This document shows, piece after piece, positions 8,034-30,140 of a stretch of DNA of 45,728 bases. Made by a program: the position numbers and the translations under genes. Source of the DNA: Gloeobacterales cyanobacterium (GTDB lineage: Bacteria > Cyanobacteriota > Cyanobacteriia > Gloeobacterales > PMM-0068); the NCBI GenBank assembly GCA_038245785.1, contig JBBRSB010000036.1:1-45728 (forward strand). Reading direction: 5' to 3'. The notes beneath the pieces are model-generated. The model had not been told where the DNA came from. It worked only from the letters and a program-made list of their open reading frames with translations, and did no database searches. Numbering within the stretch: the stretch's first letter is position 1; each line of letters opens with the position of its first letter.

Positions 8034-8087
8034 CTCATCAAGTTTTCATGTCACACTAAGCCCATTTTGGGATTGATCAACGATACT
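8034..8087 (+). promoter_or_regulatory. Phased YTCA-N7 repeats plus -10-like box
   Basis: CTCA(8034)-N7-TTCA(8045)-N7-CTAA(8056), then GATACT at 8082; same spacing recurs at 10142-10195. Confidence 0.55.
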
Positions 8088-8118
8088 CCAGAGAATATTC
8101 CCCAAGAAGGTATGACCG

Positions 8119-10122
8119 ATGTGCATCCAATTTGGGCGGGAGATTAGTGGCGACCTCAGCATCGCTGAGTCCCGTGAGTGGTTGGTCACCAATGGCATCG
8201 GCGGTTACGCCTCTGGAACCGTCGCTGGGCTGCTGACTCGTCGCTATCACGGCTTACTAATCGCAGCCTTAAATCCACCCCTGGGACGCACTTTGTTGCT
8301 GACTAAGTTGGATGAAACGGTCTTCTATGGAGAACAGACTTACGCTCTGTCATGTAACCGCTGGGCCGATGGCACCGTCAGTCCCCATGGCTATCAGCAC
8401 CTGGAACATTTCTCCTTGGAAGGAACTATCCCCGTTTGGCGTTTTGCCTGTGCCGATGCCCTCTTGGAAAAACGAGTCTGGATGCAACAGGGAGCCAATA
8501 CGACCTATGTTCAATACACCCTGAGCCGGGCCACCCTACCACTGAAACTGACGCTCAAAGCACTGGTTAACTATCGCGATTACCACGGCAGTACCCAGGG
8601 TGATGGCTGGCAAATGACTGCTGAGCCTGTTAAACAAGGAATTCAGGTAACGGCCTATCCTGGAGCCTTGCCCTTCTATCTACTCAGTGACCGCGATCAG
8701 GCTAGTCCTGTTCACGACTGGTATAAAGGTTTTGACTTGGCCGAAGAGCATTTCCGTGGCCTGAGCGACCGGGAAGACCATCTGCACATCGCCACTTTTG
8801 AAACCACGCTCAATCCGGGAGAATCGCTCACTTTGGTTGCCAGTACGGAATCGCAACCCAAATTGAATGGTGAGGAAGCACTCAAAGTTCGTCACACGCA
8901 AGAGCAAAAGTTAATCAATGTCGGGAAAGCGAATCGACCAGACAACCATAAAAATACCCCGACCTGGATCAATCACTTATTGCTGGCTGCGGACCAATTC
9001 ATTGTGGACCGCCCTTTGCCGGGTGAGCCTAGTGGTAAAACGATCATTGCTGGTTATCCTTGGTTTGGCGACTGGGGCCGTGACACGATGATTAGCCTAC
9101 CTGGTTTGACGATTGCCACAGGACGTCCAGAAGTTGCTCGCTCTGTGCTTAAGACCTTCGCGCAGTATGTAGACCAGGGCATGTTGCCGAATCGCTTCCC
9201 CGATGCAGGAGAGGTCCCAGAATATAACACGGTGGATGCCACCCTTTGGTACTTTGAAGCCATTCGTGCTTACTACACGGCAACAAAAGATGCAGAGCTA
9301 CTAAGCGAACTCTTCCCAGTCCTGGCGGAGATCATCGATTGGCATGTTCGTGGCACCCGCTACAAGATCCGCCTCGATGCCAGCGATGGTTTGCTCTATG
9401 CCGGAGAAGCAGGCGTTCAGCTGACCTGGATGGACGCGAAAGTAGGCGATTGGGTCGTTACCCCGCGTATCGGTAAACCGATTGAGGTGAATGCGCTTTG
9501 GTATAAAGCTTTATGCATCATGGAAACGTTTGCCCGCCAGCTTGGCAAGCCCTATTTAGTCTATGAAGAACTTGCTGAACGGGCTTTAGCTGGTTTTAGC
9601 CGTTTTTGGAATGAACAGACCGGATATTGCTATGACGTGCTCGATGGTCCTGATGGGGATGATGCTTCGTTGCGGCCCAATCAAATTTTTGCGGTGTCGT
9701 TGTTTGGGGCGGGGGCACGTCAAGCCGTGCCCCTACATCCCCAACAACAACGGGGGGTGGTGGATGTCTGTGGACGGATACTGCTGACTTCTCATGGGTT
9801 GCGTTCGCTCTCGCCGGATCATCCTCAATACCAAGGGCACTATGGCGGTAACCAACTTCAGCGAGATGGGGCCTATCACCAGGGAACCGTCTGGGGCTGG
9901 TTGCTGGGACCTTTTGCGCTGGCCCACCTGCAGGTTTATGGCAATCCGGCTCAAGCCCGTCAGTTTTTAGAGCCTATGGCCAACCATCTCTATGCCCACG
10001 GCCTAGGCAATCTCAGCGAAATCTTTGACGGGGATGCCCCGATGATGCCACGGGGCTGTATTGCCCAAGCCTGGACGGTAGCAGAGGTGCTCCGGGCCTG
10101 GTTCGCAACGGAGGACTCCTAA
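8119..10122 (+). CDS. Amylo-alpha-1,6-glucosidase / glycogen debranching enzyme (GDE_N + GDE_C)
   Basis: EWLVTNGIGGYASGT, IIAGYPWFGDWGRDTMISLPGL, QLTWMDAK, YHQGTVWGWL, GCIAQAWTVAE. Confidence 0.93.
   Translation: MCIQFGREISGDLSIAESREWLVTNGIGGYASGTVAGLLTRRYHGLLIAALNPPLGRTLLLTKLDETVFYGEQTYALSCNRWADGTVSPHGYQHLEHFSLEGTIPVWRFACADALLEKRVWMQQGANTTYVQYTLSRATLPLKLTLKALVNYRDYHGSTQGDGWQMTAEPVKQGIQVTAYPGALPFYLLSDRDQASPVHDWYKGFDLAEEHFRGLSDREDHLHIATFETTLNPGESLTLVASTESQPKLNGEEALKVRHTQEQKLINVGKANRPDNHKNTPTWINHLLLAADQFIVDRPLPGEPSGKTIIAGYPWFGDWGRDTMISLPGLTIATGRPEVARSVLKTFAQYVDQGMLPNRFPDAGEVPEYNTVDATLWYFEAIRAYYTATKDAELLSELFPVLAEIIDWHVRGTRYKIRLDASDGLLYAGEAGVQLTWMDAKVGDWVVTPRIGKPIEVNALWYKALCIMETFARQLGKPYLVYEELAERALAGFSRFWNEQTGYCYDVLDGPDGDDASLRPNQIFAVSLFGAGARQAVPLHPQQQRGVVDVCGRILLTSHGLRSLSPDHPQYQGHYGGNQLQRDGAYHQGTVWGWLLGPFALAHLQVYGNPAQARQFLEPMANHLYAHGLGNLSEIFDGDAPMMPRGCIAQAWTVAEVLRAWFATEDS
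9711..9737 (+). repeat. REP-like palindrome read in-frame inside the debranching gene
   Basis: GGGGCACG-TCAAGC-CGTGCCCC-TACA hairpin of the GTAGGGGC...GCCCCTAC type. Confidence 0.7.
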
Positions 10123-10141
10123 AATTTCATATGTACAGATA

Positions 10142-10195
10142 CTTATCTCTTTCTAATCATGGCCTAAGGGCCACTTCAGTGTGAAGATTCATACT
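10142..10195 (+). promoter_or_regulatory. Phased repeats plus -10-like box
   Basis: CTTA(10142)-N7-CTAA(10153)-N7-CTAA(10164), CATACT at 10190; spacing identical to 8034-8087 and both continue ATACTCCA. Confidence 0.5.
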
Positions 10196-10254: not shown

Positions 10255-12963
10255 ATGGCAACCACAACAGCGGAAGAACAAAGGTTAGAAGAAGCCCTCA
10301 CCCACAAAGCGCACTGGCGCAGGTGGGGACCCTACTTGAGTGAACGGCAATGGGGAACAGTGCGCGAAGACTATAGCCCCTATGGAAGCGCCTGGGATTA
10401 TTTCAGCCATGACCAAGCCCGTTCTCGTGCTTATCGTTGGGGTGAAGATGGAATCGCTGGCATTTCTGATAACCATCAACATCTCTGTTTTGCCCTCGTT
10501 CTCTGGAATGGGGAAGACCCGATTTTGAAAGAGCGACTCTTTGGGCTAACGGGCAGTGAAGGGAATCACGGAGAAGATGTCAAAGAATATTACTTTTACC
10601 TGGACAATACGCCGACCCATTCCTATATGAAAGTGCTCTATAAATATCCGTATAAAGCATTTCCTTATTCCCAATTAGTTGAAGAGAGTAACCATAGAGA
10701 CCGCCAAGCGCCAGAATTTGAACTCTTAGACACAGGTGTATTTGAAGAAAACCGCTACTTTGATGTGTTTGTTGAATATGCCAAGCATTCTGCTGAAGAT
10801 ATTCTGATTCAAATAAAAGTCATTAACCGAGGACCAGAAGCAAAGACTTTGCACGTTCTACCTACGCTCTGGTTTCGCAATACGTGGTCTTGGAACGGAG
10901 ATACAAACAAACCATCACTTCGTACTATCCAGTCAAGCAATGGCTCAAACATCATCGAAGCAGCTCATCCAACCTTGGGAATAAGGTGGTTATATTGTCA
11001 GGGTGAAGCGGAATATCTATTCACCGAGAATGAAACCAATAGCGCAAGAGTATTTGGCTATCCTAATGCTTCAACCTACGTCAAAGATGGAATTAATGAT
11101 TACATCGTTCAGGGTCGAAAAGAGGCTGTTAATCCGGGCAGGACGGGTACTAAAGCGGCAGCTGATTGCACGCTAACGGTCGGTGTCGGTGAAACTAAAA
11201 TAATTCGGCTGCGACTGAGTGATACTCCTGCGCTAGAAGAACCATTTGGCAACGAATTTGATGCTGTTTTTAACCTCCGCCAACAGGAAGCCGATGAGTT
11301 TTATCAACGGATTACGCCTTTCCCCCTCAGCGAAGATATGCGCAATGTACAGCGGCAGGCATTCGCTGGCATGCTTTGGAGCAAGCAGTTCTATCACTAC
11401 GTTGTAGAAGATTGGCTGAAGGGCGATCCGGCTGCCCCAACTCCGCCACCAGAAAGAAAACGGGGCCGGAATCGGGAGTGGGTCCATCTCTATAACGAGG
11501 ATATTCTCTCGATGCCCGACAAGTGGGAATATCCCTGGTTTGCGGCCTGGGATCTAGCTTTCCACACGATCACCTTAGCGATGATTGATCCGGACTTTGC
11601 CAAGTATCAATTGGATGTGCTGACGCGGGAATGGTACATGCATCCCAATGGTCAGATTCCCGCCTATGAGTGGGCCTTTGGGGATGTAAATCCTCCGGTT
11701 CATGCCTGGGCCACCTGGCGTGTTTATAAGATTGAGCAAAAGATGCACGGCCAGGGAGACCGTCAGTTCTTGGAGCGGGTATTTCAGAAGTTGATGCTCA
11801 ACTTCACCTGGTGGGTAAACCGTAAAGATGTAGAAGGGAATAACGTCTTTCAGGGCGGGTTTTTAGGGTTAGATAACATCGGCGTCTTCGACCGGAGTGC
11901 GGCTCTGCCCACGGGGGGCCATATTGACCAGTCCGATGGCACCAGTTGGATGGGGATGTATTGCCTAAATATGCTGGCAATTGCTCTGGAACTTGCCAAA
12001 ACGAACCCTGTTTATGAAGACATTGCCACCAAATTCTTCGAGCATTTCCTCTATATCGCCGATGCGATGAACCACATTGGTGAAGGCGAAGCCAATTTGT
12101 GGAACGACGAAGATGGCTTCTACTATGACGTTCTGCATCTGCCAGAGCGACAGATTGAACTGAAAGTGCGCTCCATGGTCGGGCTGATTCCCTTATTTGC
12201 CGTTGAAACGATTGAACCAGAAACCTTACGTCAACTGCCAGCCTTTAAAAAACGGACAGAATGGTTTATTCAGAATCGTCCTGACCTGACCCAGAATATT
12301 GCCTGTATGAAAACAGAGGGGGTGGGTGAGCGAAGATTACTGGCTATTGTTTATCGAGACAAGCTGCGGCGCATTCTACAAAAAATGCTAGATGAAACTG
12401 AATTTTTTGGACCCTATGGTATCCGGGCTATATCTAGATTCCATGCCGAACATCCCTATATTTTTAACGTCGATGGCGCTCAATTCCGGGTGGACTATGA
12501 ACCGTCTGAATCCAGCAGTGGTTTGTTTGGAGGCAACTCTAATTGGCGTGGTCCTGTCTGGTTTCCGGTCAATTTCCTGCTCATTGAATCTCTGCAAAAG
12601 TTTTACTATTATCTCGGCGATGATTTCAAAGTGGAATGTCCTACAGGTTCCGGTCAAATGATGAATCTATGGGAAGTTGCTGCTGAACTGTCTCAACGGC
12701 TCATCCGAATTTTCTTACAAAATCCAGCGGGTCAACGTCCCGTTTATGGCAGCAGCGAAAAGTTCCAAACCGATCCTTACTGGCGAGATTTAGTTCTCTT
12801 CTATGAATATTTCCACGGGGACAATGGCGCGGGCATTGGGGCCAGTCATCAAACGGGATGGACAGGTTTAGTGGCCAAACTGATTCAGCAATTTGGTGAG
12901 TATGAACCCCAACATAAGGCCCCCAAGTTGGTAGATTTTTCGGCCACTAGAGCTCCTGCGTGA
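10255..12963 (+). CDS. GH63 / MGH1-like glucosidase
   Basis: [69 protein letters not shown]. Confidence 0.92.
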
Positions 12964-13078
12964 ATCTTGCAAGATAATACCAGATGATATTTATCCATTT
13001 TGAAAAAAACGGTTTTGCATGTCAAAACACAAACCATTGGAACGTTTTTGCCGATGGTATAGTGGCATTTTCGGCGTT

Positions 13079-13108
13079 CGTAGGGGCGATTTGCAAATCG
13101 CCTCTACG
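13079..13108. repeat. REP-like palindrome
   Basis: CGTAGGGGCGATTTGCAAATCGCCTCTACG, near-perfect inverted repeat with GTAG end. Confidence 0.85.
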
Positions 13109-13327: not shown

Positions 13328-14173
13328 ATGAACCAAGCGAGTGTCCCAGAGCGACATCCTATCAGCACCCAAAGAATTCTGGCCTATGGCTGTGAACTGT
13401 TAGGCATGGCCTTGATTATCTTCAATGCGCTCGCTTGGGCCTGTTGGAATTTCGGAGCTGGCTCTCCGGTTGTTCAGTCAGTTCCTGACCGCAGTGTGCG
13501 ATTGGTCTTGCAAGCTATTTGTATTGCAACGGGATCTGCGATCGTTGTCTACTCACCCTTCGGTAAACGAGCTGGCGGACATCTCAATCCAGCCGTGACA
13601 TTGGGCTTTTGGCTCTTGAATAAAATCTCAATCCGAGATGCCTTTATTTATATCCTGATGCAGTTTTTAGGTGCATTTGTGGGCTCGCAGCTGGTGTGGC
13701 TAAGTTTTCCTGTCTTAGCGCACAGTATTCGTGGGGGTGCCACGGCCTTGGATCAGGGCATCAGTCCAGCACTCGGCTTTGGACTAGAGTTGAGCATGAC
13801 CTTTCTGTTGATGTTTATTATTCTGGTTACAGTTAATTCGGCCTGGATGCGCTGGACAGGCGTGATTGCTTCAACGGTCTTTGCTTTGCTATACGCTAAT
13901 GCTGCTAGGTTTACAGGAGCTAGTTTGAATCCGGCGCGGTCCTTGGCCCCTGCAGTCCTCGCTATGTTCTGGCAAAACCAGTGGATTTATTGGATTGCTC
14001 CCCCCTTGGGGGCGGCTCTGGCGGTACTTCTCTATCGCCAGGGAATTATCGGTACGGGCAAGTCATACTGCTGCAAGCTCTACCATACCTCCGATATTCC
14101 CTGCCATCACACTCGTTGCGGTTACCGTGACCCCGCGAATATTGATGATTTTTCTCGAACGAGAAGCCCGTAA
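13328..14173 (+). CDS. MIP/aquaporin family channel with Cys/His-rich C-terminal tail
   Basis: GGHLNPAVT and ASLNPARS (two NPA boxes), six hydrophobic helices; tail YCCKLYH..PCHHTRCGY. Confidence 0.9.
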   Translation: MNQASVPERHPISTQRILAYGCELLGMALIIFNALAWACWNFGAGSPVVQSVPDRSVRLVLQAICIATGSAIVVYSPFGKRAGGHLNPAVTLGFWLLNKISIRDAFIYILMQFLGAFVGSQLVWLSFPVLAHSIRGGATALDQGISPALGFGLELSMTFLLMFIILVTVNSAWMRWTGVIASTVFALLYANAARFTGASLNPARSLAPAVLAMFWQNQWIYWIAPPLGAALAVLLYRQGIIGTGKSYCCKLYHTSDIPCHHTRCGYRDPANIDDFSRTRSP

Positions 14174-14530
14174 ATGGAAGATCTGTTTAAACTATGGACA
14201 GCTTATTTGGCCTTGGGCGTAGAAGCTAGTGCTGGGATAATTATTGGGCTGGCAGCTATTGAAGCAACGTATAAGGCCTTGTTGCTGTTTTTTTCACGGC
14301 GAGGTGCTCCTGAAGATTTGCCAGAGAACGTGAAGGAAGATATTCGATTGCAATTTGGCCGCTGGCTGTCGCTAGGACTCGAATTTGAATTGGGTGCAGA
14401 TATTTTACGCACAGCCATCTCACCCACCTGGAATGAGATTGGACAGTTGGCGGCGATTGTTGTCTTGCGGACCGCCCTAAATTTCTTCTTGCAACTGGAA
14501 ATCGACAAAGCTGCCAAGAGAAAGCTCTAA
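14174..14530 (+). CDS. DUF1622 membrane protein
   Basis: IRLQFGRWLSLGLEFELGADILRTAISPTWNEIGQLAAIVVLRTALNFFL; starts immediately after the aquaporin stop. Confidence 0.9.
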   Translation: MEDLFKLWTAYLALGVEASAGIIIGLAAIEATYKALLLFFSRRGAPEDLPENVKEDIRLQFGRWLSLGLEFELGADILRTAISPTWNEIGQLAAIVVLRTALNFFLQLEIDKAAKRKL

Positions 14531-14595
14531 ACTGCATAAGCTGGCAAGTAAATCCTCCAGTAAATAGATTGGGCTATCCTAGTATTAAAGAAATT

Positions 14596-14668
14596 CCCGG
14601 TGTGGTGGAGTCTGTCAGGCTGGCGGATCACTAAAATCGCCCAGCCTACCGGGGCCACTTAACGGGAG
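14596..14668 (+). ncRNA. Candidate riboswitch (nhaA-II-like cation sensor) in the antiporter leader
   Basis: P1 CCCGGT(14596)/ACCGGG(14648); inner stem AGGCTGG(14617)/CCAGCCT(14641); pseudoknot GTGGT(14602)/GCCAC(14654) next to SD GGGAG(14664); TAGTAT at 14580. Confidence 0.6.
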
Positions 14669-14674
14669 TGAACT

Positions 14675-15922
14675 ATGTTTTTTCCGCTTATCGCTGCAGG
14701 TTCAGTGGGCGAACTTCCCCCTGGCCTTCTCACCCTTGGGCAGCTTTTGTCCAGTCTTCTTATCATCTATGTGGCCAGCAAAATGGGTGGGGAACTCGCC
14801 CTGCGCCTCAAACAACCTGCCGTTCTGGGCGAACTGCTGGCGGGGGTAGCCGTCGGCGTCTCTGGCTTGCATCTCATTGACCCAACGCAGCCCGTGCTCC
14901 TCCTGTTGGCCCAGGTCGGGGTTACCCTGTTGCTCTTTGAAATTGGCTTGGAGTCGGACCTCCGTTCCTTGCTCAAACTTGGTCCGCAGGCACTAGCAGT
15001 TGCCTTGGTGGGAATGGCTTTGCCCTTCGCCCTGGGCTACGGTGTCATGAAATTTACAGGAGCCTCAGAGCTTTTGGCCGTCTTCGTCGGGGCCACCGCG
15101 ACAGCCACGAGCATCGGCATCAGTGCGAAGGTCCTTTCAGAGCTGGGATACCTCCAACGACCTGAAGGCCAGATCATCTTAGGAGCAGCGGTAATCGATG
15201 ACATCCTGGGGGTAGTTATCCTTTCGGTGGTGGCCGGTATTGCCAAGGGCGGCAGTCTGGAGTGGGGCGAAGTAGCACGGATTGTCTTTTCCTCACTTGG
15301 GTTTTTAGTTGGTGCTATCGTAGTTGGCAACTGGTTTATGCCCTACTTTTTGAAGGTTGTAGAATGGCTACGCACCCGTGGTGACTTACTCACGGCCTCG
15401 CTAATCTTTGCCTTTGCCCTTGCTTGGATAGCAGAACAGGTAGGCTCTGCCGCAATTATTGGTGCTTTTGCTGCCGGACTGGTTCTAGCTGAGACAGATA
15501 AACGTCATGACTTGGAGCACCAGCTGCGTCCCGTCACTGATTTCTTCCTGCCAGTCTTCTTCATTACCGTTGGCGCTGGCGTCAATTTAGCGCTCCTGGC
15601 TAACCAGCAGGCTCTGTTCTTAGCACTTGCCCTTAGTGCAACAGCCGTGCTGGGAAAACTAGTCTGTGGTTGGGCTGCTTTTAGAACTCCAGTCAATAAA
15701 TGGGTGATTGGAGCAGGAATGATCCCACGTGGGGAGGTTGGTCTGGTTTTTGCCAGTGTCGGGCTGTCTACAGGAGTCCTTACCGGGATTAACCACAGCG
15801 CTGTGGTAATCATGGTCATACTTACCACCTTCTTGGGTCCGCTGCTGTTGAGTCTGATGCTTCGCAGTAAGTCTGTGAGTGAGCCAATGGTTGAAGAGAC
15901 AACTGTAAAGTCCGTTGATTAG
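14675..15922 (+). CDS. CPA2 family Na+/H+ antiporter (NhaS3/NapA-like)
   Basis: QPAVLGELLAG, LFEIGLESD, ATSIGI, AAVIDDILG, GMIPRGEVG; about 12 TM segments. Confidence 0.92.
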   Translation: MFFPLIAAGSVGELPPGLLTLGQLLSSLLIIYVASKMGGELALRLKQPAVLGELLAGVAVGVSGLHLIDPTQPVLLLLAQVGVTLLLFEIGLESDLRSLLKLGPQALAVALVGMALPFALGYGVMKFTGASELLAVFVGATATATSIGISAKVLSELGYLQRPEGQIILGAAVIDDILGVVILSVVAGIAKGGSLEWGEVARIVFSSLGFLVGAIVVGNWFMPYFLKVVEWLRTRGDLLTASLIFAFALAWIAEQVGSAAIIGAFAAGLVLAETDKRHDLEHQLRPVTDFFLPVFFITVGAGVNLALLANQQALFLALALSATAVLGKLVCGWAAFRTPVNKWVIGAGMIPRGEVGLVFASVGLSTGVLTGINHSAVVIMVILTTFLGPLLLSLMLRSKSVSEPMVEETTVKSVD

Positions 15923-16984: not shown

Positions 16985-16999
16985 CTCAGCAAAAACTCA
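16985..16999 (+). promoter_or_regulatory. CTCA-N7-CTCA direct repeat upstream of the HK/RR operon
   Basis: CTCA at 16985 and 16996. Confidence 0.45.
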
Positions 17000-17139
17000 T
17001 TTTTCTCACAAGTACTCCTACTAGAGTAAACGAGAGAGTATTTAATCAACTTGGAAGAGAGGCTACAACCATCTACGGTTGTAGGTTGTTGAGGTGTTCA
17101 GTGAATTCTGTGGTGAATCGACTAAAAGCTGCAGTCAAG

Positions 17140-18249
17140 ATGATGCCAGAAAGAATTAGTCTTTCTTCTCTTCAATCTCGGCTCATCTTTGGAAACACCA
17201 CTATTTTTATTCTTGGGCTAGGGAGTCTTGTTCTATGGCTGGACTGGGAAACAAGACCGTTATTCATGGCTACACAGCAACAGGAAATTGTTCTTGATTC
17301 CGCTAAGTTGTTGGCTATTCTGCAAAGTTTGAAGCTGGTGAGCCTCTTGTCGCTAACGACGGTAACACTTATCAGTATCCTATTTATCCAATATGTACTG
17401 TTTCCCCTGTACCAGGTGATTCAACAAATGCAGAACCCTATCCATGCTTTGAGTGCGAACCCAATCAATCGTGCTCCTTGTGAGGTTAGACAACTAATCG
17501 AGCGGTGGAACCATCAGTTGGTATACGTCTCTGAAATCAAAGAGCAGCAGAAACAGTTTATCGGTGGTGCAGCCCATGAGTTGCGCACTCCTATGAGCCT
17601 GGTTTATGGTTACTTGCAGCGAGCTAGTCGACGAAATCAGAACTTGACTGATGATCAGCAAGAAGCGCTAGAAATGGCTGCTGCTGAAGCTAAACGCATG
17701 ACACAAGTTCTGCAAGAATTACTGATTCTTGCACGGGCTGACCGAGGAAACATGCCCCTCCATCCAGAATCTCTGAAACTCAATGATCTGTTGCTAGAAA
17801 TAGCGAGCATGGCTGAAAAGTTTGAACAGCGCACTATCCGGATAGAAGCAGACGCAACGCTGATTACGGTTAAGGCTGACCGTAGACACTTAGTGCAGGT
17901 CTTGAACAGACTGCTTGATAATGCAGTCAGATATTCACCTGCTGATAAACCTATTACGCTGAGACTCAAATGCACGGATGATAAGGCCATTATTCAGGTT
18001 TGCGATAGCGGAGGCGCTGACTTATCCGTTGGGGGACAGGGAATTCCAGGTGCGCAACAAGCACGAATTTTTGAACCCTTTTATCGGGTTGATCCTTCCC
18101 GAACTCGCTCAACGGGAGGCGTTGGTTTGGGACTATCTATTGTTAGGGCTCTGGTGGAAAACATGGGTGGATCGGTTACAGTCCAGTCAAAGCCTGATCA
18201 AGGCAGTACCTTTACGCTGACCTTGCCTGCTCTAGGAGATGCATCATGA
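17140..18249 (+). CDS. Membrane sensor histidine kinase (HisKA + HATPase_c)
   Basis: Two TM segments; AAHELRTP H-box, LLDNAVRYS N-box, IFEPFYRVD, GVGLGLSI; likely ATG at 17140. Confidence 0.9.
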   Translation: MMPERISLSSLQSRLIFGNTTIFILGLGSLVLWLDWETRPLFMATQQQEIVLDSAKLLAILQSLKLVSLLSLTTVTLISILFIQYVLFPLYQVIQQMQNPIHALSANPINRAPCEVRQLIERWNHQLVYVSEIKEQQKQFIGGAAHELRTPMSLVYGYLQRASRRNQNLTDDQQEALEMAAAEAKRMTQVLQELLILARADRGNMPLHPESLKLNDLLLEIASMAEKFEQRTIRIEADATLITVKADRRHLVQVLNRLLDNAVRYSPADKPITLRLKCTDDKAIIQVCDSGGADLSVGGQGIPGAQQARIFEPFYRVDPSRTRSTGGVGLGLSIVRALVENMGGSVTVQSKPDQGSTFTLTLPALGDAS

Positions 18250-21395: not shown

Positions 21396-21408
21396 AACGA
21401 TTCTCCCT

Positions 21409-21897
21409 TTAAGGCTGCTTGAGCGCATTGGCTCCAGCAAGGGCAATGTCCTCATCCTGTTGAGCGCTCGCCGTGCCGCTCACCCCGACGGCCCCGACAA
21501 TTTGCCCATCCACTTCAATCAGCACTCCTCCCTGGAGCGGGGTAAAGTCTGGCATAGTCACCAGGGCCGTCCGACCTTTATTAATGGAATTTTCAAAGAA
21601 ACTGGTGGGGTGTTTGAAGATGGCTGCAGTGCGGGCTTTGCCGATAGAGACATTGGCACCAGCAGCAAACGTGTTATCCAGGCGCTCCATCAGCATCAGG
21701 TTGCCGCCATCATCGACAACGGCGATGGCACCTCCTGGTGCGTTTTTACTCTTAGCCGCCGCTTCTGCGGCAGTAATTACCTGCTTTGCGCCTTCCAGGG
21801 TGAGTGCTTTCTTGTTGACGACCTGAGCCTGAACCGTAGCAGCGATGGTTGAAAAGACCATAGCCAGTAGTACAGTAGCGCGAATTAATTTTTTCAT
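21409..21897 (-). CDS. GlcG/HbpS family haem-binding protein (DUF336), secreted
   Basis: AIAVVDDGGNL..ERLD..SIGKARTAA..LQGGVLI..IVGAVGVSG..QQDEDIA; N-terminal signal peptide. Confidence 0.92.
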   Translation of the reverse strand: MKKLIRATVLLAMVFSTIAATVQAQVVNKKALTLEGAKQVITAAEAAAKSKNAPGGAIAVVDDGGNLMLMERLDNTFAAGANVSIGKARTAAIFKHPTSFFENSINKGRTALVTMPDFTPLQGGVLIEVDGQIVGAVGVSGTASAQQDEDIALAGANALKQP

Positions 21898-21900
21898 CGG

Positions 21901-22668
21901 TTATTTCTCTGGATAAATCGTGACCCGCATCACTTTGCTCGTGTCAAAATTAGGCTGATCTTTGACCACTTGCACTACGCCATTCTCGACGGGGCCTGTA
22001 TTGGGAGCTTTCTGACGCGGTCCCTGGTTCGGTCCAATCCCAGGTTCTTCATCAACTTCTGTACCGGCATTCCAAAGCAGAATTTGAGAGGTAACATCAC
22101 CGCTGATTGGTTTGCCCTCCGCATCAAATAAGGCAATGCCTGCTTCATCGGGGGCATAGAACCAGTCGTTGGATTGTCCAAACATGGTGTCCAAGGAAAA
22201 CCGTTGTCCTGGAGTGGCGCTGACCGTAAACTCGAAGATTTGACCAGGGCGGATTCCGCCTACTTTTGCCGCTCCCACTGCCGTATTAAACACTGCGCTA
22301 GAGCGAACCTCCTGCTGGTTCTGGAGTGATTTCGCCAACGGGGTTGGGTCACCGTCTTCGGCGATCGCCTCTACCCCTAGGTTTCGATCTTTCTGCTCAA
22401 CGCTAAACAGAGGAGCGTTTTGGGTGTGGATTAACCAAACGCCCGGTGAAAAGTCCAGTGTCCATTTCGTTCCATTGGAGGCTGTAAATCCATCTTTCGT
22501 GGAGATGTTCTCGATCCGAATTTTGAATTGGGTAACCTGTGATTGTGCTGTTTGTGATTCAGTTGTTTTGGGAAGCAGAGGGCCTCCTTTGGAGAATCCG
22601 GCAGTTTGTGTGCCGATCACCACTGCGATCACTAAAGCTGCACCCATAGCCGATTTACGGAACTGCAT
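21901..22668 (-). CDS. Secreted spondin_N domain protein
   Basis: FSPGVW..H, IAEDGDP, TMFGQSNDWFYAP, LWNAGTEVDEEPG; signal peptide; ATG at 22668. Confidence 0.88.
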   Translation of the reverse strand: MQFRKSAMGAALVIAVVIGTQTAGFSKGGPLLPKTTESQTAQSQVTQFKIRIENISTKDGFTASNGTKWTLDFSPGVWLIHTQNAPLFSVEQKDRNLGVEAIAEDGDPTPLAKSLQNQQEVRSSAVFNTAVGAAKVGGIRPGQIFEFTVSATPGQRFSLDTMFGQSNDWFYAPDEAGIALFDAEGKPISGDVTSQILLWNAGTEVDEEPGIGPNQGPRQKAPNTGPVENGVVQVVKDQPNFDTSKVMRVTIYPEK

Positions 22669-22808
22669 AATCAATCTCCTTAAACATTTTGAGTAATTAG
22701 CTATCAGCCTTTTTTATGGGAATTTACTTTTCCCGAAGGTGTGCTGAACTTAACTATGATTAAAAACCAGCGACCTTAGACTGACCTGATAGCGAAAGTT
22801 GGGCTAAA

Positions 22809-22834
22809 TAAGGCTTTCCTGAAAGAAAGATGAG
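22809..22834 (-). promoter_or_regulatory. Phased CTCA-N7-TTCA-N7-CTTA repeats upstream of the spondin operon
   Basis: Forward-strand TGAG 22831, TGAA 22820, TAAG 22809. Confidence 0.55.
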
Positions 22835-23396: not shown

Positions 23397-24713
23397 TTAA
23401 AGCTCAAGAACCACACTGGAGGTTTTAGGCTTAGAAATGCAGATCAGCACTGAACCATCGGCGATCGCAGCAGTAGGTTCTTCCTGATACTCCACCTCCC
23501 CCTCCAGGATTTTGCACATACAGGTGCCGCAAATGCCCTGGCGACAACTGTAGGCAGGGTTCAGATCGTTAGCTTCGGCAAACTCCAAAATGCTGTCATA
23601 ACCCGATTGCCAGGTCAGCGTTTTAGCAGACTTCGCAAAGACGATCTCAGTCCCCTCAGACACTTCCGAAGCCAGAGGGATACTTTCAAACGTCATAGTC
23701 CGCACTTTCATGAATAACTCAAAAAACACGCGATCGTCAGGAACGCCCCAGGCCCTAAGTCCTTCCCTAAGCGATTGTAAAAAAGGAGGCGAACCGCATA
23801 GGAAGAACTCCGCCTCCTGCGTGACCAACGTTTGGATCAAGGCTGTATCGATGTACCCAGTACTTTGGAAATGGCCTTCATCCTCAGGCTGGGGGCGACT
23901 ATAGGCAAAATGAATTCGCAGGTTAGGGTTCTGCTCGGCAAGTGCCAATACCTCGTCCCGGAAGGCATGATATCGACCCTCTCGGGCTCCATGCAAAAAA
24001 TAGAGGGGCCGATCAGGGTTGAGACGGCTGCAGGCTTTCGCCATGCTGATCATCGGTGTAATTCCAACGCCATTGCTGACCAATACGGCGGGTATCGATT
24101 TGCGGATATCAAGCACAAATTTGCCGCTGGGCGGTTTGGCTGGAATCACCGAGCCTTCGTGGACGAAATCGTACATGAAGTTTGAGGAGAGTCCTGGCGG
24201 TACATCCTGGCCCCTGGGGGCAGGTTCACGCTTAATCGATAGCCGATAGTAGTCGCAGGGTTCAGGATAGTCGGATAGCGAGTAGGTGCGAATAATAGAC
24301 TTTACCTGTCCAGGAATATCCAGCTTGATCGTTAAATATTGCCCTGGCTGAAAGTTTGGAATTTCGCCGCCGTCTTCAGGCTTCAGGTAGAACGAAGTAA
24401 TTTCTTCACTCTCTCTTACCTTGCGAATGACCATAAAATTGCGCCAATCTTTCCAGGTCTGACCATCAGCAGTAGATGGAGCAACTAAGCTGGAGGACTC
24501 CTGCGCTTTCCCTGCATAGACTAACCCCAGCAACGCCCCACATCCTGTTCCCAACAGTGAGATATAGACTCCCCATTGATAGGCAGATTGGTCCTTGGGG
24601 TTTATTGCAATGATCGCTACAGCGCTCACCAAAGTGATAGCGGAGAGGGCCGTTGCAGCAGCAGTCAAGCTCCTGACTATAGGGTTTTGAATTCTTCCTA
24701 AGCTTTCGAACAT
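23397..24713 (-). CDS. Membrane-anchored FAD/NAD(P)H oxidoreductase (FNR-like) with C-terminal 2Fe-2S ferredoxin
   Basis: Two N-terminal TMs; FQPGQYL, RTYSLS, GVGITP, LCGSPPF; CRQGICGTC...C. Confidence 0.9.
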   Translation of the reverse strand: MFESLGRIQNPIVRSLTAAATALSAITLVSAVAIIAINPKDQSAYQWGVYISLLGTGCGALLGLVYAGKAQESSSLVAPSTADGQTWKDWRNFMVIRKVRESEEITSFYLKPEDGGEIPNFQPGQYLTIKLDIPGQVKSIIRTYSLSDYPEPCDYYRLSIKREPAPRGQDVPPGLSSNFMYDFVHEGSVIPAKPPSGKFVLDIRKSIPAVLVSNGVGITPMISMAKACSRLNPDRPLYFLHGAREGRYHAFRDEVLALAEQNPNLRIHFAYSRPQPEDEGHFQSTGYIDTALIQTLVTQEAEFFLCGSPPFLQSLREGLRAWGVPDDRVFFELFMKVRTMTFESIPLASEVSEGTEIVFAKSAKTLTWQSGYDSILEFAEANDLNPAYSCRQGICGTCMCKILEGEVEYQEEPTAAIADGSVLICISKPKTSSVVLEL

Positions 24714-24737
24714 GGATTTCTCCTATGAATGCTTTGC

Positions 24738-24850
24738 GCCCCCCTGCCCCCCATAGCGCAGCTCCCCGTAGGGTATACTCGGGGGTTCTGACTCAAAGTC
24801 CCCCAGTATTGGGGGATTTAGGCTTCCCTGAGCGTCAGCCGAACGGGGGC
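24738..24850. repeat. Composite cyanobacterial dispersed repeat with two nested mini-insertions
   Basis: CCCCC..GGGGG hairpin scaffold (TCCCCCAGTATTGGGGGATTTA-GGGGGC) interrupted by about 21-nt (24754-24774) and 24-nt (24821-24844) segments. Confidence 0.7.
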
Positions 24851-24852
24851 AT

Positions 24853-25581
24853 CTATTGAGGCTTCGCCGGAACAGAAGGATTCTGAACAGTACAGGGCTT
24901 CTTATCGCACTGGAGTTCATAGAGTTTCTGCACATAGGGTTCCTGCCAACCGAGAGGAACCTCTAACAATGCCTGCGTTCCAGTAATTCCTTGACCGATA
25001 AAAAGCAAAAAAGCAAAACTATTAAGCACAATATGAACCGTGCGCCAACGATGGGTTTTATCTTGATAAATCTCTTGGAGAATGGCGAGTGAAACAATCA
25101 TCAACACCGCAGCAGTGAGCCCGTAGTAATAGTGCGAGATATACCACTGTTCGGTTTTACGGTAGACTCCATCTTGAGCGCCCAATGCAATTAAACCCAT
25201 ACTGCTTAACGTTGCGAACGCCCCCCGCCACACCCTCGACTTGGCCTGATAGAGCAGGGCCAGAGATGCAATCGTCGCCACAAACATCAGCCCGATTAGA
25301 ACGACCTTAAACGGCTCCTTGCCCCAAACGCCACTCTGAACAATATTGCCGAGCACATCATTCGCCAAGGCTAGTAAAACAAGGCCGACTACACTTCCCG
25401 TTAGCCAGCGGCCAAGCTGGACATGTTCTTGCCCTACGACCGCTGGAATCTTGCTCTTACTGTCTTCAAGGCGACGTTGGCGTACTTGTAGCGCTCGATT
25501 GATAACTATCCCTAATAAGGGGAAGACAACAATCACTGCCGCTACTGGATGCAGTAACAAAATCAGGTCTCGAAATTCCAT
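24853..25581 (-). CDS. DUF4079 membrane protein (cytochrome b561-like)
   Basis: LLLHP..VVFPLLG, EHVQLGRW, SHYYYG, VHIVLN..GQGITG; multiple TMs with four spaced His. Confidence 0.8.
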   Translation of the reverse strand: MEFRDLILLLHPVAAVIVVFPLLGIVINRALQVRQRRLEDSKSKIPAVVGQEHVQLGRWLTGSVVGLVLLALANDVLGNIVQSGVWGKEPFKVVLIGLMFVATIASLALLYQAKSRVWRGAFATLSSMGLIALGAQDGVYRKTEQWYISHYYYGLTAAVLMIVSLAILQEIYQDKTHRWRTVHIVLNSFAFLLFIGQGITGTQALLEVPLGWQEPYVQKLYELQCDKKPCTVQNPSVPAKPQ

Positions 25582-25682
25582 ACAAAACCTCTCTGGAACT
25601 CACGAAAGTCTACGCCCCCCTACCCTAACGGGCATCCCACATTTTCAGGGGGATTGAGTGAGATATCATGAGCAAGTTGTGA

Positions 25683-26066
25683 TTACTTGACTTCAGCAGG
25701 AGCAAACTTTGTAACCTTGCCTTTTTTCACGGCAACAATAACGTCGTACGTTGTACAGAGCGATATGGTGGTGTCGTCAGCTTTGCTATATAGGTTAACC
25801 ACCATCCCTGCACCACCAGGCTGAATACCAATCGGTGTCAGGTCTTTATTTTTGACATATAACTTGCGCATCAACTCAGCACTACCGGGCTTACCTTTTA
25901 CTGCAGTGAGTTGATCGATTTTTTGTTGACTAGTTTCACTATCTGTCATCTTCATTTCTTGAGCAGATGCCTGCACAAGATAAGGGTTAATGGCCTTGAG
26001 CGGTGCATCCCAAAGTGTTACTAAACCAAGCAAAGCACAACTGGTAAGTAAAGAAGTGAATTTCAT
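25683..26066 (-). CDS. Hypothetical secreted protein
   Basis: 127-aa ORF with hydrophobic signal-like N-terminus and GGAG SD. Confidence 0.7.
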   Translation of the reverse strand: MKFTSLLTSCALLGLVTLWDAPLKAINPYLVQASAQEMKMTDSETSQQKIDQLTAVKGKPGSAELMRKLYVKNKDLTPIGIQPGGAGMVVNLYSKADDTTISLCTTYDVIVAVKKGKVTKFAPAEVK

Positions 26067-26167
26067 TTTGGATCTCCAAATGAAGCGACTTTACAAAGAA
26101 TCCCATGAGATGCTGAAATGCATCTGAAGCTAAACGAGAAGTTATCTTAATTTATGGCATTAGAACA

Positions 26168-26193
26168 CTCAGTCACGACTCATCTATTTCTCA
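26168..26193 (+). promoter_or_regulatory. Three perfectly phased CTCA repeats (11-bp period)
   Basis: CTCA at 26168, 26179 and 26190 upstream of the DMT gene. Confidence 0.65.
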
Positions 26194-26253
26194 GAAAAGT
26201 GTAATAGAGTTAAATTTATTCTGACTTTTAGTGTTCTTAGCGCCTTTATTACT

Positions 26254-27303
26254 ATGGCTCAAACCAATCCTTTCCTCCGCAAAATTCCCTCACAAACTTT
26301 TCTCTGGCTTGCCATTGCAATCTTTGGTGCGTCCAGTGCTGTGACCCGGAAGCTCACGGAAATTGGTGCTCAGAACCTTATGGATGGGCGCAATCCAATT
26401 TCGCTGTGCAATGTTTTGTTTGTCGGAAATCTTTGTGCCTTGCTGCTTCTGGTGATGATCCACTGGCGACAGTTGAATCGGATAACGATAGGAAGACTAT
26501 CGGGGAAAGAGTGGTTTGGCTTAGTTCTGGTTGCGCTGCTATCGGGTGCCCTCACCCCTGGATTGATTTTTCAAGCACTCTCGCAAACGGCGGTAAACAA
26601 TGTTGTTCTGGTTGGACGGTTAGAACCGCCGCTTACGCTTGTCTTATCTATTTGGATTCTGCGGGAACGGGTGAATATTTGGGAGCTCATAGGGGCGCTT
26701 GCAGCTTTTATAGGCGTGACCCTGACCATTATCCTCCAGCCTCCCGCCGCAAGCATGATGAATGTTGGAAGCTTTGGTCTCGGGATTGGCGAACTGCTGG
26801 CCTCCCTGGGAGCCGTGGCTTTAGCTATCTCTACCATCATCGTCAAAAAAAGACTCTCCCGCGTTCCTCTAGGGCTTTACAGTATTTTTCGTACCGCCTT
26901 GGGGACGGTCATTTTCTTCTTTTCAGGGCTGCTCCTCTATGGTCACGATCACTTCATGAACGCACTTTCACCATTTCTGTGGCAGTGGATGCTGCTATAC
27001 GGGGCTGTGATTGTAGTGCTGGGTCAGTCATTTTGGATTATGGGTCTACGAGCGTCTACCGTCTCTATGGCTTCTCTAGTGGCTTCCTTTACGCCGATCG
27101 CAGGGATTCTGGCAGCCTATTTCATCCTGGATGAAGCCCCAACCCAGGCTCAATACATCGGCGGCAGCATAATTTTGCTCAGTATTTTGATCAGTCAAAT
27201 TGGCATTCAGCGTAGGGGTTTTGCCAGAAATTTAATGAGTGATACCAGCTCTACTGCGATGGAACAAATTGTAGAGACTCGGATCGGATTTAAGGGGATC
27301 TAG
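26254..27303 (+). CDS. DMT/EamA family transporter
   Basis: About 10 TMs in two EamA repeats; RLEPPL..ILRERV, FTPIAGILAAYFILDEAP. Confidence 0.88.
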   Translation: MAQTNPFLRKIPSQTFLWLAIAIFGASSAVTRKLTEIGAQNLMDGRNPISLCNVLFVGNLCALLLLVMIHWRQLNRITIGRLSGKEWFGLVLVALLSGALTPGLIFQALSQTAVNNVVLVGRLEPPLTLVLSIWILRERVNIWELIGALAAFIGVTLTIILQPPAASMMNVGSFGLGIGELLASLGAVALAISTIIVKKRLSRVPLGLYSIFRTALGTVIFFFSGLLLYGHDHFMNALSPFLWQWMLLYGAVIVVLGQSFWIMGLRASTVSMASLVASFTPIAGILAAYFILDEAPTQAQYIGGSIILLSILISQIGIQRRGFARNLMSDTSSTAMEQIVETRIGFKGI

Positions 27304-27307
27304 AAAC

Positions 27308-28399
27308 TTACTTCTCCACGAGCTGCATCGTATGACCATCCGAATCTCTCACCAAAAAACCTTTTTGGAATCCTAATGTTTGTCCAGGAACTACAATAAC
27401 GCTCGGAGAAACAAATGTTGTCTGATTGAGGCGCAAACGTTTAGCCATTGCCTCCGCATCTTTTACTACCAGTGTGGTTTGCCAGTGCAGCAGATCATTA
27501 GGCTTGGCATCCATCGGTAAAGGCCGTCCATCTTTCGGTTGTAAATATTCCAAAAACTCAATGCCTGGGCCAGCAGGCGATTTCAATCCACTAATATGCA
27601 ACCTTGCCCCTTGCACATTGTTGAGGTGCTCTTGCTCCGTGCCGTAGTTCATACTTTCTCCTGCCACCTTCAAACCCAGAAGATCGCGGTAGAACTTCAG
27701 ACTGGTTTCAGTGTTGGCAACGACAATCGCCGTATGATCAATTCCCAGAAATAATTGATTCGTTGGCTTTTGCCACTTCGGATCACCTTTACCTGGAGGA
27801 AAGTAGATCGTTTCTAGATAGTGTCCGTCGGGATCACGGAAATAGAAGGCGCGAATACCTGCGGCAGCTTTATTCCAAGCGGGGAGCGTTTGAGGTGCAG
27901 TAGAAGCATGTTGAATCTTGAATTGCCGTAAATGCTGGTAGGCTTTGTCCATATCACTGGTTACGATGGCAATATGCTGAAACCAGCGGTCATTACTGCG
28001 CGAATCAATTGGGAAGGGTTTCCCCTTTGGCGTTAGATACTCCGTTAATTCAATAAACTCACTGCCTAGCTGCATCTGCACCACACGCATCCGCACCCCA
28101 AACAGTCCTTGCAGTTGTTCGTATTCAGTTCCTAAAACTTCAACATCTGAAACTTTTTTGAAAGACAGGACCTGCCCGTAGAATTCAACGGCGCGGTCCA
28201 TATCAGAGACCGTCATTCCCGTCGATTCGACTGCGGTAACGGCAGTCGAGGTTTGCTGAGCGAGAATGGTTGAGGATGGTCTACGGCTGGGTTGCTGGAC
28301 ATTCTGCGCGTATGCGGGATTACTACTTGCAATCAGGGCGACTAAGGCACTCACTGATAGGAGAACGCTGGTTGTTTTTTGTGTGAATGTCTTCGTCAT
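27308..28399 (-). CDS. Secreted two-domain VOC/glyoxalase family protein
   Basis: Signal peptide; TVSDMDRAVEFY, QHIAIV, FYFRDPDGHYLE, IDHTAIVV..SLKFYRDLLG, RDSDGH. Confidence 0.9.
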   Translation of the reverse strand: MTKTFTQKTTSVLLSVSALVALIASSNPAYAQNVQQPSRRPSSTILAQQTSTAVTAVESTGMTVSDMDRAVEFYGQVLSFKKVSDVEVLGTEYEQLQGLFGVRMRVVQMQLGSEFIELTEYLTPKGKPFPIDSRSNDRWFQHIAIVTSDMDKAYQHLRQFKIQHASTAPQTLPAWNKAAAGIRAFYFRDPDGHYLETIYFPPGKGDPKWQKPTNQLFLGIDHTAIVVANTETSLKFYRDLLGLKVAGESMNYGTEQEHLNNVQGARLHISGLKSPAGPGIEFLEYLQPKDGRPLPMDAKPNDLLHWQTTLVVKDAEAMAKRLRLNQTTFVSPSVIVVPGQTLGFQKGFLVRDSDGHTMQLVEK

Positions 28400-28441
28400 G
28401 GCAGTTCAGGGGTAAGAGATTGGCATGCTGGGCTTATAGTC

Positions 28442-30019
28442 CTATTTCATCCGCTCCAGCAAGTGCTCCCCTACCCGCAGAGCATTGGCAATGATGGTCA
28501 GGGTTGGGTTTACTGCTCCACTTGAACAGAAGAAGCTGCCATCGACCACGTAAAGATTATCGATGTCATGCGTACGACAATTCAGATCCAAAACGGAGGT
28601 GTCAGGATCTTCTCCAAAGCGGCAGGTTCCCACCTGATGTCCTACCCCATCCAGGGGTAATTTGCCCGTGAAGGTTTTGCCTGCTCCGGCAAAATAGGAG
28701 CAGTTGGGCATGATCGCCTGACCGCATTCAATGGACTTAAGAATTTCAATCCAGCGTGTTTCCAGGCGCTCGTAGGGTTCGTTGTTGTTCTCAGCATAGT
28801 CAAGGATGATTTTGTCCCCATCCACACGGACCCGATTGTTGGGGTCGGGTAAGTCCTCCGTCGTTAGCCACCAGTCAATCGAATTACTGGCTACTTCCGC
28901 TGGGGTCAGCGGGGCATAGGCTTCAGGATTACCTTCCAACGCTTCCTTACTAACTTTACCCAGGGTTTGAATCTGTCCCATTGGGTAGTCATAGCCTTCC
29001 TCCCCCCAATAGAAATCGTTAATGGACAGGGTTTTCTGAAAAATCGTCGGATTGGGCTTTTTGCTGACCCCAATGATTGAACCCAGTACATGCTTCATGA
29101 AGTTACGCCCAACCAGATCTGAGCTATTGGCTAACCCTTGGGGATGTTTCTGATTGGCAGATTTCAGGAGTAGAACCGATGAGTTTACCGCTCCACAAGC
29201 GAGTGCTACGATATCCCCAGAAAATTGCTGCACCTGCGTTTCTCCAGATTCTGGATGACGGATCTCAACCTCGACGCTGGAAATTTTCCGCCCAGAATCG
29301 CTGGTGTGCAGTTTCAGAACCTTTGCTTCTGTTAACAGAGTGACATTGTCCTGGCCCATTACCGGACGAACAGTGCTAACCTCGGCATCGGATTTAGCAT
29401 GGACCAAACAGGGAAAGCCATCGCAAGTACTGCAGCGAATACATTGACTCAAATACATCTGCGCTTGATTGAGCCGAATTCCGACAGGCGTGTGGTAAGG
29501 GCGCAAACCTTTAGTTCTCAGGGTATCGGAAACTTCCTGAATCCGAGGTTCATGGCTCACGGCCGGATAGGCAAAATCCTGACTGCGGAAGGGTTCTGTT
29601 GGGTCTTCCCCGCTTTTGCCATGAACCTGATAGAGCTTTTCTGCTTGCACATAGTAGGGCTCGAAGTCCCGATACTTGAGCGGCCATTCTGGGGAGAGGC
29701 CATCTTTATGCTGGTATGCCTCGAAGTCTCTTTCCCGTAGACGAAAGAGAGCAGCCCCGTAGACTTTGGTATTACCGCCGACGAAGTAGCTCATCCCAGG
29801 ATGCAGTTCCTTGCCGTCTTTGTCGTACCAAACTTCTGGGTTGTGATAGCGGTCGCTGTTGAAGACGACTTTAGTATTCCAGTTATCTTTCTCTCTAGGT
29901 AGAAAGGGACCGCGTTCCAGGAGCAAAATCTTCTTGCCGCTCTGGGCTAATCGATAAGCTAAGGTACCACCGCCTGCCCCGGTACCGATGATGATCAGGT
30001 CGTAATGGTTGCTAGACAT
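28442..30019 (-). CDS. GMC family FAD oxidoreductase
   Basis: YDLIIIGTGAGGG, VGGNTKVYGA, CIRCSTCDGFPC, HQVGTCRFG, NLYVVDGSFF..NPTLTIIANALR. Confidence 0.93.
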   Translation of the reverse strand: MSSNHYDLIIIGTGAGGGTLAYRLAQSGKKILLLERGPFLPREKDNWNTKVVFNSDRYHNPEVWYDKDGKELHPGMSYFVGGNTKVYGAALFRLRERDFEAYQHKDGLSPEWPLKYRDFEPYYVQAEKLYQVHGKSGEDPTEPFRSQDFAYPAVSHEPRIQEVSDTLRTKGLRPYHTPVGIRLNQAQMYLSQCIRCSTCDGFPCLVHAKSDAEVSTVRPVMGQDNVTLLTEAKVLKLHTSDSGRKISSVEVEIRHPESGETQVQQFSGDIVALACGAVNSSVLLLKSANQKHPQGLANSSDLVGRNFMKHVLGSIIGVSKKPNPTIFQKTLSINDFYWGEEGYDYPMGQIQTLGKVSKEALEGNPEAYAPLTPAEVASNSIDWWLTTEDLPDPNNRVRVDGDKIILDYAENNNEPYERLETRWIEILKSIECGQAIMPNCSYFAGAGKTFTGKLPLDGVGHQVGTCRFGEDPDTSVLDLNCRTHDIDNLYVVDGSFFCSSGAVNPTLTIIANALRVGEHLLERMK

Positions 30020-30092
30020 AGGCTTGCTCCATCCAATTCAGGATGGCCAGTAAGTTGTACTGATAATTTAGAAGCTCTGCCTGGGTGAGGAA

Positions 30093-30140
30093 TGATGGAA
30101 AGCTGAGAACTGAATAGGAATATTCTGATAGCCCGCTGAG
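30093..30140 (-). promoter_or_regulatory. Five phased 11-bp repeats upstream of the GMC-VOC operon
   Basis: Forward TGAG 30137, TGAT 30126, TAGG 30115, TGAG 30104, TGAT 30093. Confidence 0.5.

Follow-up and report, generated by a model that had tools for sequence, protein, structure and literature searches.

The window analysed here, a stretch of 45,728 nucleotides, makes up contig C36 of a cyanobacterial genome of 5.0 Mb; between positions 8119 and 30019 it carries a cluster of 18 genes and one small ParD-like open reading frame (ORF), among them a membrane histidine kinase and an OmpR/PhoB-type response regulator. A preliminary description had noticed that YTCA half-sites recur every 11 bp in front of most units of this 22-kb cluster, and had proposed a single regulon under the control of the cluster's own regulator. 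Here, we follow these repeats (hereafter boxes) through the genome and through related cyanobacteria, and find good support for a conserved regulon that apparently has not been described before and that follows the familiar direct-repeat pattern of OmpR regulators.

The cluster opens with an archaeal-type glycogen debranching enzyme (GDE; 8119..10122, +; GDE_N and GDE_C domains, TIGR01561 above cut-off) and an MGH1-like GH63 glycoside hydrolase (10255..12963, +), followed by an MIP channel, a DUF1622 protein and a CPA2 antiporter (13328..15922, +) and by a GAF protein. Then come the kinase (17143..18249, +; HisKA and HATPase_c), the 224-residue regulator of the Rre28/Sll0396 family (18246..18920, +) and, as final gene of the kinase–regulator operon, an AhpC/TSA protein with a cold-shock domain (AhpC-CSD; 18926..19756, +), so that the cluster does encode its own OmpR pair as first described. 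Beyond them lie an operon which, listed by coordinate, holds an SMP-30 gluconolactonase, a GlcG/HbpS-like protein and a spondin-domain protein (19770..22668, −), a group composed of an FAD/NAD-2Fe2S reductase (FNR), a DUF4079 protein and an exported-type 127-residue protein without Pfam domain (hyp127; 23397..26066, −), an EamA/DMT transporter (26254..27303, +), and a VOC (glyoxalase-fold) protein with a GMC oxidoreductase (27308..30019, −). Just outside, a cytoplasmic GAF-PAS histidine kinase (30431..32038, −) has no box and is a candidate second input. The regulator is the proposed binder of the boxes, and GDE, GH63, the spondin operon, the hyp127 group, the DMT transporter and GMC-VOC are its proposed targets.

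Upstream regions were taken from purpose-made gene calls, excluding regions that were shorter than 80 nt or contained N; two tiny ORFs were discarded, and 17143 was assigned by hand as kinase start, which likely lies at 17140/17143 rather than at the TTG at 16948. All half-sites named in the preliminary description were found at their positions, but those of GH63 read CTTA, CTAA and CTAA instead of literal YTCA, and the half-site is better written YTCAK, with CTAA and CTTA as variants. The DMT box (26168..26194, +) is near-perfect, with CTCAG at 26168, CTCAT at 26179 and CTCAG at 26190 ahead of a −10-like TAGAGT at 26205-26210, and it ranks first of 2929 upstream regions when three phased half-sites are scored with the foreign-trained matrix described below. 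The GDE box (8034..8060, +) consists of CTCAT at 8034, TTCAT at 8045 and CTAAG at 8056, followed by GATACT at 8082-8087 (rank 5/2929), and the GH63 box (10142..10179, +) of CTTAT at 10142, CTAAT at 10153, CTAAG at 10164 and a fourth half-site, TTCAG, at 10175, followed by CATACT at 10190-10195 (rank 12/2929). At both promoters ATACTCCA, which is the −10-like hexamer plus three bases, begins 49 nt past the first box, as had been seen before. The kinase–regulator operon is preceded by a dyad (16985..17000, +), CTCAG-CAAAAA-CTCAT with half-sites at 16985 and 16996, and by TAGAGT at 17022-17027 (rank 6/2929). On the reverse strand, the spondin operon box (22775..22834) has CTCAT at 22834, TTCAG at 22823, CTTAT at 22812 and two further half-sites in phase at 22790 and 22779 (rank 8/2929), and the GMC array (30092..30140) spans five positions ahead of TAAATT at 30070-30065 (rank 10/2929); four of these are good half-sites (30140, 30129, 30107, 30096), while 30118 is off-consensus, which trims the earlier count of five. 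The hyp127 dyad (26113..26128, −), noted before as a weak pair near 26114/26125, has TTCAG at 26128 and 26117 and GATTCT at 26102-26097, 26 nt past the first half-site; its rank is 140, and both dyad and spacing are conserved in orthologues.

Boxes precede seven promoters, whereas the upstream regions of MIP, CPA2, GAF and the GAF-PAS kinase hold no box (ranks 529-2635 of the genome scan). A further pair proposed at 25669/25680, before DUF4079, is doubtful, with 0.8 and 7.0 bits, rank 2273 and no counterpart upstream of 8/8 DUF4079 orthologues, and a match before FNR at 24832 was rejected as a box, being part of a repeat with 9 genome copies. Coverage thus amounts to about 7/10 units, or 14/18 genes if hyp127, DUF4079 and FNR, which probably form a single unit within putative operon borders, share one transcript. 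Read-through may still serve MIP, as GH63 and MIP stand in this order in what looks like an operon in genome G002.

Within this genome, literal YTCA-N7-YTCA occurs in 5/12 cluster upstream regions vs 85/2917 others, and among periods 6-17 the excess is confined to period 11. As the literal motif had been chosen post hoc, it was retested with sequence from other genomes. A tied half-site matrix trained on foreign sequence and applied as three repeats placed six cluster promoters (DMT, GDE, kinase, spondin, GMC, GH63) at ranks 1, 5, 6, 8, 10 and 12 of 2929, and phased triples scoring 12 bits or more were present in 6/12 cluster regions vs 20/2917 others (Fisher p 2e-10), which bears out the expected enrichment over all upstream regions of the genome. 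At periods 9, 10, 12 and 13, 0/12 cluster regions held such a triple, and when upstream regions on other contigs were taken 12 in a row (2102 runs), no run contained more than one triple. With a foreign 18-nt matrix, the site at 16985 came first of the 2929 regions, scoring 24.9 bits vs 15.7 for the runner-up. We are nearly certain that the box is a functional cis-element. Outside the cluster, no regulon members stood out above chance in this genome (box plus −10 in 5/2917 regions vs 2-9 in controls), and a second GH63-GMC pair, on contig C45, was not among the top-ranked regions.

The motif also emerges without guidance from the window. Unseeded expectation maximisation on 93 foreign upstream regions yielded CTCAGSAAAWaCTcAK (log-likelihood 430 vs 115 on shuffles), that is YTCAG-N6-YTCAK with period 11, and the same 11-bp repeat was recovered from just the 38 regions belonging to neither regulator nor kinase (182 vs 99); loci L003, L009, L011, L013-L080 and most of L101-L130, being duplicates or non-cyanobacterial, were excluded from training. 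Among 401 genomes of the cyanobacterial class, the regulator has matches at E<=1e-112 in 95 and at E<=1e-84 in 244. Around it, in 50 neighbourhood loci (two of them from one genome), the cognate kinase recurs in 29 and a GAF-PAS kinase within 10 kb in 14, together with repeated occurrences of DMT, hyp127, DUF4079, GH63, GDE, GMC and AhpC-CSD; in genomes where the kinase gene lies apart from the regulator gene, both often have boxes of their own. On plasmid pAQ7 of Picosynechococcus PCC 7002, four phased half-sites lie upstream of a cupin-kinase-regulator operon (L151 3334-3371, +; 3282, −), which adjoins egtB/egtD and ldh and whose regulator gene is SYNPCC7002_RS15995.

Orthologous promoters were compared between regulator-positive genomes and a regulator-negative set of 80 genomes, drawn up without 46 small-genome f4 members and 31 others. 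For GDE, a triple of at least 12 bits was found in 10/30 regulator-positive vs 1/29 regulator-negative genomes (best 30 of 45 and best 30 of 37 matches, one locus without 5' end dropped), and for GH63 the box was present in 13/25 vs 1/22 (47 of 87 matches examined). DMT homologues are commoner alongside the regulator (25/40 genomes vs 8/40 without it), the spondin triple occurs in 3/3 orthologues having a 5' end (one locus without it dropped), and the GMC box in 3/5 close orthologues and 1/14 distant paralogues. The preliminary description had named conservation in orthologous promoters as a check, and the proposed regulon passed it. In two regulator-negative relatives (L228, L231), the GDE promoter has kept its −10 context and its boxes are eroded, as would be expected for regulon decay.

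Regulators of the OmpR/PhoB type bind direct repeats phased at 10-11 bp near −35. At six of the seven promoters (GDE, GH63, kinase, DMT, GMC, hyp127), a hexamer with A at its second and T at its sixth position begins 26 nt past a half-site, and the spondin promoter deviates from this rule by one base. In orthologues, nAnnnT stands at +26 in 9/14 cases for GH63, 5/10 for GDE, 6/7 for hyp127 and 4/12 for DMT, and at +25 or +26 in 14/21 kinase or regulator orthologues, against a background of 8.2%. No consensus sigma-70 promoter called between 7900 and 27400 coincides with a boxed promoter. By analogy with PhoB-type regulators, this layout would be that of an activator placed over −35. As an additional half-site lies within the spacer at hyp127, DMT and GH63, graded or partly repressive binding is possible there.

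The regulator combines a receiver (PF00072, 100.8 bits) with a winged-helix Trans_reg_C domain (PF00486, 103.8 bits), and its translation shows the canonical receiver residues E9-D10-E11, D53, T81 and K103. Its best NCBIfam match is the NblR model NF045914, yet the regulator was rejected as NblR, since its 283.5 bits fall under the 300-bit cut-off and the phosphorylation residues are present; its scores for the PhoB and RpaB families, 240 and 223 bits, are likewise under their cut-offs. The nearest solved structures are the actinobacterial PhoP, MtrA and PrrA. Rre28 (Sll0396) of Synechocystis sp. PCC 6803 is tabulated with 224 residues and a single cysteine at position 65 (PMC4361706), and the regulator of the window has the same length and the same single Cys65. 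In genome G371 (locus L210), the gene that fits the published Rre28 primers with 0 and 1 mismatches is the only match of the window regulator at E<=1e-80, a one-way best hit with 67% identity and the same recognition helix. Judged by its sequence, the regulator is a member of the Rre28/Sll0396 family, even though a quick tree of 68 rows with weak deep forks contains no supported clade uniting it with the primer-matched Rre28. The two also differ in setting: the primer-matched copies stand alone as orphans, their receiver altered and no box next to them, whereas the window copy is canonical, kinase-paired and boxed; the regulon may therefore not exist in that lineage. The regulator shares 89% identity with Nostoc-type copies vs 65-70% with copies from genomes of its own order, which suggests a horizontal origin; slow evolution would explain these identities equally well, and the tree does not decide between the two. 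The downstream function of Rre28 is called undefined, and Rre28 is named a priority for that reason (bioRxiv 10.64898/2026.06.09.731130), and a sll0396 mutant is reported to lack a non-bleaching phenotype (PMC7865187).

Relatives of the partner kinase are about 480 residues long and have a periplasmic domain, about 110 residues of which are missing from the window kinase through a clean in-frame loss that leaves the catalytic domains in place. The same shortening occurs in G002, Brasilonema and G175 (loci L081, L012, L132), which makes four genomes from at least two families, and in a Pseudanabaena-like group (L097, L206, L207) the kinase is without its membrane part as well. For the periplasmic domain of the relatives, an Atlas feature search leads to single-Cache/CusS-like domains (scores 0.90-0.91). 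With this domain lost from the membrane kinase, the signal may arise in the membrane itself or enter through the neighbouring GAF-PAS kinase. The local targets point to the freeing of glucose from stored glucans or glucosides and its oxidation, to the detoxification of aldehydes and to envelope proteins, and we tentatively name envelope or redox stress as a possible trigger.

Taken as a whole, the repeats are very probably binding sites of the cluster's own regulator, a prediction made from sequence comparison. The Rre28-family protein encoded at 18246-18920, phosphorylated on D53, would read the boxes by head-to-tail binding, one protomer per YTCAK half-site, with an 11-bp period and two to four protomers in a row. 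The promoter-proximal half-site would start 26 nt before the −10 hexamer, at about position −38, and would stand in place of a −35 element. Given the weak −10 hexamers (GATACT, CATACT, TAGAGT, TAAATT) and the lack of a consensus −35, the regulator most likely recruits RNA polymerase in the manner of PhoB. Activation, which we infer over repression, of its own kinase–regulator operon would amount to positive feedback, and six further units would be activated: GDE, GH63, GMC-VOC, the spondin-GlcG-lactonase operon, the DMT exporter and the hyp127-DUF4079-reductase unit. The proposed single regulon, own operon included, is in this form favoured by a conserved box that is strongest at the regulator's own operon, by GDE and GH63 boxes that track the regulator and by the fixed −10 spacing; it does not extend to all units, and binding by the regulator is the predicted step.

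Also in favour of this reading, the strict autoregulatory pattern occurs in 45/95 genomes with the regulator at ≥75% identity, in 20/149 with a more distant one and in 15/157 without it; a backward control gave 3, 5 and 3 genomes in the same three groups, and 12/15 matches in regulator-negative genomes fell inside ORFs vs 9/25 sampled in regulator-positive ones. This contrast is partly circular, because regulator promoters from part of these genomes had served to define the pattern, and related genomes are not independent. Other observations weigh against the reading. In regulator-positive genomes, boxes are missing from two thirds of the GDE and half of the GH63 orthologues, the GDE rank test is weakly positive also at control periods 10 and 12 (p 0.008 and 0.03), and the DMT contrast is not significant (10/25 vs 2/9, p 0.07; 34 of 34 matches examined). 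Taken alone, the window prefers the +26 offset just modestly (5/12 vs 3, 3, 2 and 1 at other offsets). A genome of the same genus, G001, has full boxes at GH63 and DMT and yielded no regulator in its fragmented assembly (94% complete, 350 contigs), with further exceptions in G156 (DMT) and G067 (GDE). Finally, the primer-matched Rre28 genes (L210, L212) have no box next to them, and a strict triple pattern has 0 matches in the genomes of these two loci and in G044.

The recognition helix brings a second protein into view, the NblR-like pseudo-receiver encoded on contig C10 (74190-74906), whose helix and wing are identical to those of the local regulator (NIIEVYIRYLRLK), a further point on the opposing side. 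In a joint reading that we regard as unlikely, the whole Rre28/NblR clade, with its one recognition helix, would target YTCAG-N6-YTCAK, the chromosomal pseudo-receiver would share the promoters with the phosphorylated regulator, competing or pairing with it, and the regulon would have been rewired here, with the periplasmic sensor dropped and the signal entering through the cytoplasmic GAF-PAS kinase. Were the target indeed clade-wide, the box would supply a binding site for both a widespread uncharacterised regulator and the enigmatic NblR. That the pseudo-receiver, alone or together with the local regulator, is what reads the boxes of this genome we hold to be improbable. It would explain the boxes of G001, where the NblR-like gene alone was found, and the ten further OmpR-type DNA-binding domains detected in the genome all lack a NIIEVYIRYLRLK-type recognition helix. 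However, NblR is above cut-off in 63/80 regulator-negative genomes, whose GDE and GH63 promoters are almost never boxed, no dyad above 8.5 bits was found upstream of 7 nblA loci from 5 genomes, the boxes show no excess outside the cluster (the 5/2917 given above), and the best site of the genome sits at the local regulator's own operon.

Just as improbable is control by another OmpR protein with a similar repeat, of the CopR/NrsR/ManR type or Nostoc Hrr1, for which the local pair would be merely another target. The putative site of CopR is TTCAT-N4-5-TTCAT (PMC4182526), and Hrr1 binds an 11-nt repeat, AGGAATTTACM (PMC13079394), which resembles the AGGAA-rich spacer seen here; Hrr1, compared by motif and not by sequence, may itself belong to the regulator's family, and Nostoc flagelliforme has no entry among the regulator cluster members listed. 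Yet TTCAT-N4-6-TTCAT is absent from the window, H-box matches at up to 2 mismatches number 22 vs 22.9 expected with none at the boxes, and the distribution of the box follows the presence of the window regulator's family. That a single promoter was duplicated, or that the repeats arose by chance in AT-rich intergenic DNA, with no common regulator, is hardly credible: the GDE and GH63 promoters are alike beyond their boxes (ATACTCCA) and duplication remnants occur in the cluster (a GMC 5' fragment at 22899-23003), but many families keep the half-sites and their period with spacers that differ freely, the box precedes seven unrelated genes, and boxes are eroded in L228 and L231 despite the kept −10 context. 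Control by the cluster's own regulator thus remains the reading that we prefer.

The term island, used in the preliminary description, holds merely in the sense of a gene cluster: GC is 0.490 vs 0.478 and GC3 0.507 vs 0.477 +/- 0.067, there is no tRNA, and no integrase was found among 30 ORFs scanned. Composition, integrase and tRNA border being all negative, the cluster shows no sign of horizontal acquisition or mobility. The GMC remnant consists of 35 codons (22899-23003, −) on the upstream side of the spondin operon, next to a ParD-like antitoxin gene (23084-23308, +) without toxin partner; a second ParD-like remnant stands above the intact GMC gene, at about 30170-30230, and these remnants are traces of local duplication. 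The AhpC/TSA domain with its C-terminal cold-shock domain constitutes an unusual fusion, which follows the regulator directly in this genome as well as in G204, G212 and G357. The leader of the CPA2 antiporter (14596-14672, +) is strongly conserved with G002 (L081 9390-9540, −) and folds into a long hairpin that reaches to the ribosome-binding site; it is possibly an ion-responsive cis-regulatory RNA. Across the window, no Rfam family reached its gathering score, the sole match being a chance one at this leader. Two dispersed intergenic repeats, one a hairpin after GH63 at 13078-13110 and the other at 24816-24850, occur in the genome as 17 and 9 exact 20-mer copies, respectively. Rightward of the cluster (33288-45346) follow a Tle1-like phospholipase-domain protein, ilvA, a CHASE2 kinase, a LysM-DUF928 protein, a TPS-CHAT protein and an ShlB-type transporter. 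In other genomes, the strict box precedes arsenosugar-biosynthesis ArsM and radical SAM ArsS genes and VTT-domain proteins (L170, L174, L181, L172, L176), and further genes behind it include a cupin and flavin oxidoreductases.

No published description of the motif or the regulon was found in a literature search that reached few subscription papers; the accessible portions of PMC2491639, PMC3025956, PMC13131328, PMC7007895 and PMC4890671 contain nothing on the motif, and the supplements of preprint 10.64898/2026.06.09.731130 may list inferred Rre28 targets. For the regulator family, matched in 244/401 genomes, the gain would be a predicted binding motif together with a promoter layout and a set of targets that recurs. 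Picosynechococcus PCC 7002, whose pAQ7 carries kinase, regulator and four-fold box, offers a ready test system. Because the mechanism is textbook OmpR/PhoB, the value lies in assigning a regulon and not in a new kind of system.

Among known systems, the pho box of PhoB/SphR and the HLR1 box of RpaB are direct repeats phased at 11 bp that lie beside or over −35, and PhoB is autoregulated. The boxes of the window share this design and differ in the half-site, and pho-like and HLR1-like patterns had no match in the window. MprA of Mycobacterium tuberculosis is an autoregulated OmpR-family stress regulator with a TCTCAG-type direct repeat of 11-bp period, an apparent likeness to the window box; it belongs to another phylum and has other targets than the window regulator. 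Closer in phylogeny, Hrr1 of Nostoc flagelliforme, COO91_06020, with its H box (PMC13079394), and CopR of Synechocystis (PMC4182526) are also cyanobacterial OmpR regulators with short direct repeats; their published motifs are neither enriched nor present at the boxed promoters of the window, Hrr1 being set apart by motif only. NblR of Synechococcus elongatus is phosphorylation-independent, and its role is called enigmatic (PMC4390884, PMC12632262). The genome studied here has an NblR-like pseudo-receiver and no NblA match (PF04485), and its HIP1 octamers are few (242 in 5.0 Mb). NblR is unlike the window regulator in having a pseudo-receiver in place of a canonical receiver, and the genome has a separate NblR-like gene on contig C10, but the two are alike in a recognition helix that is identical across both groups.

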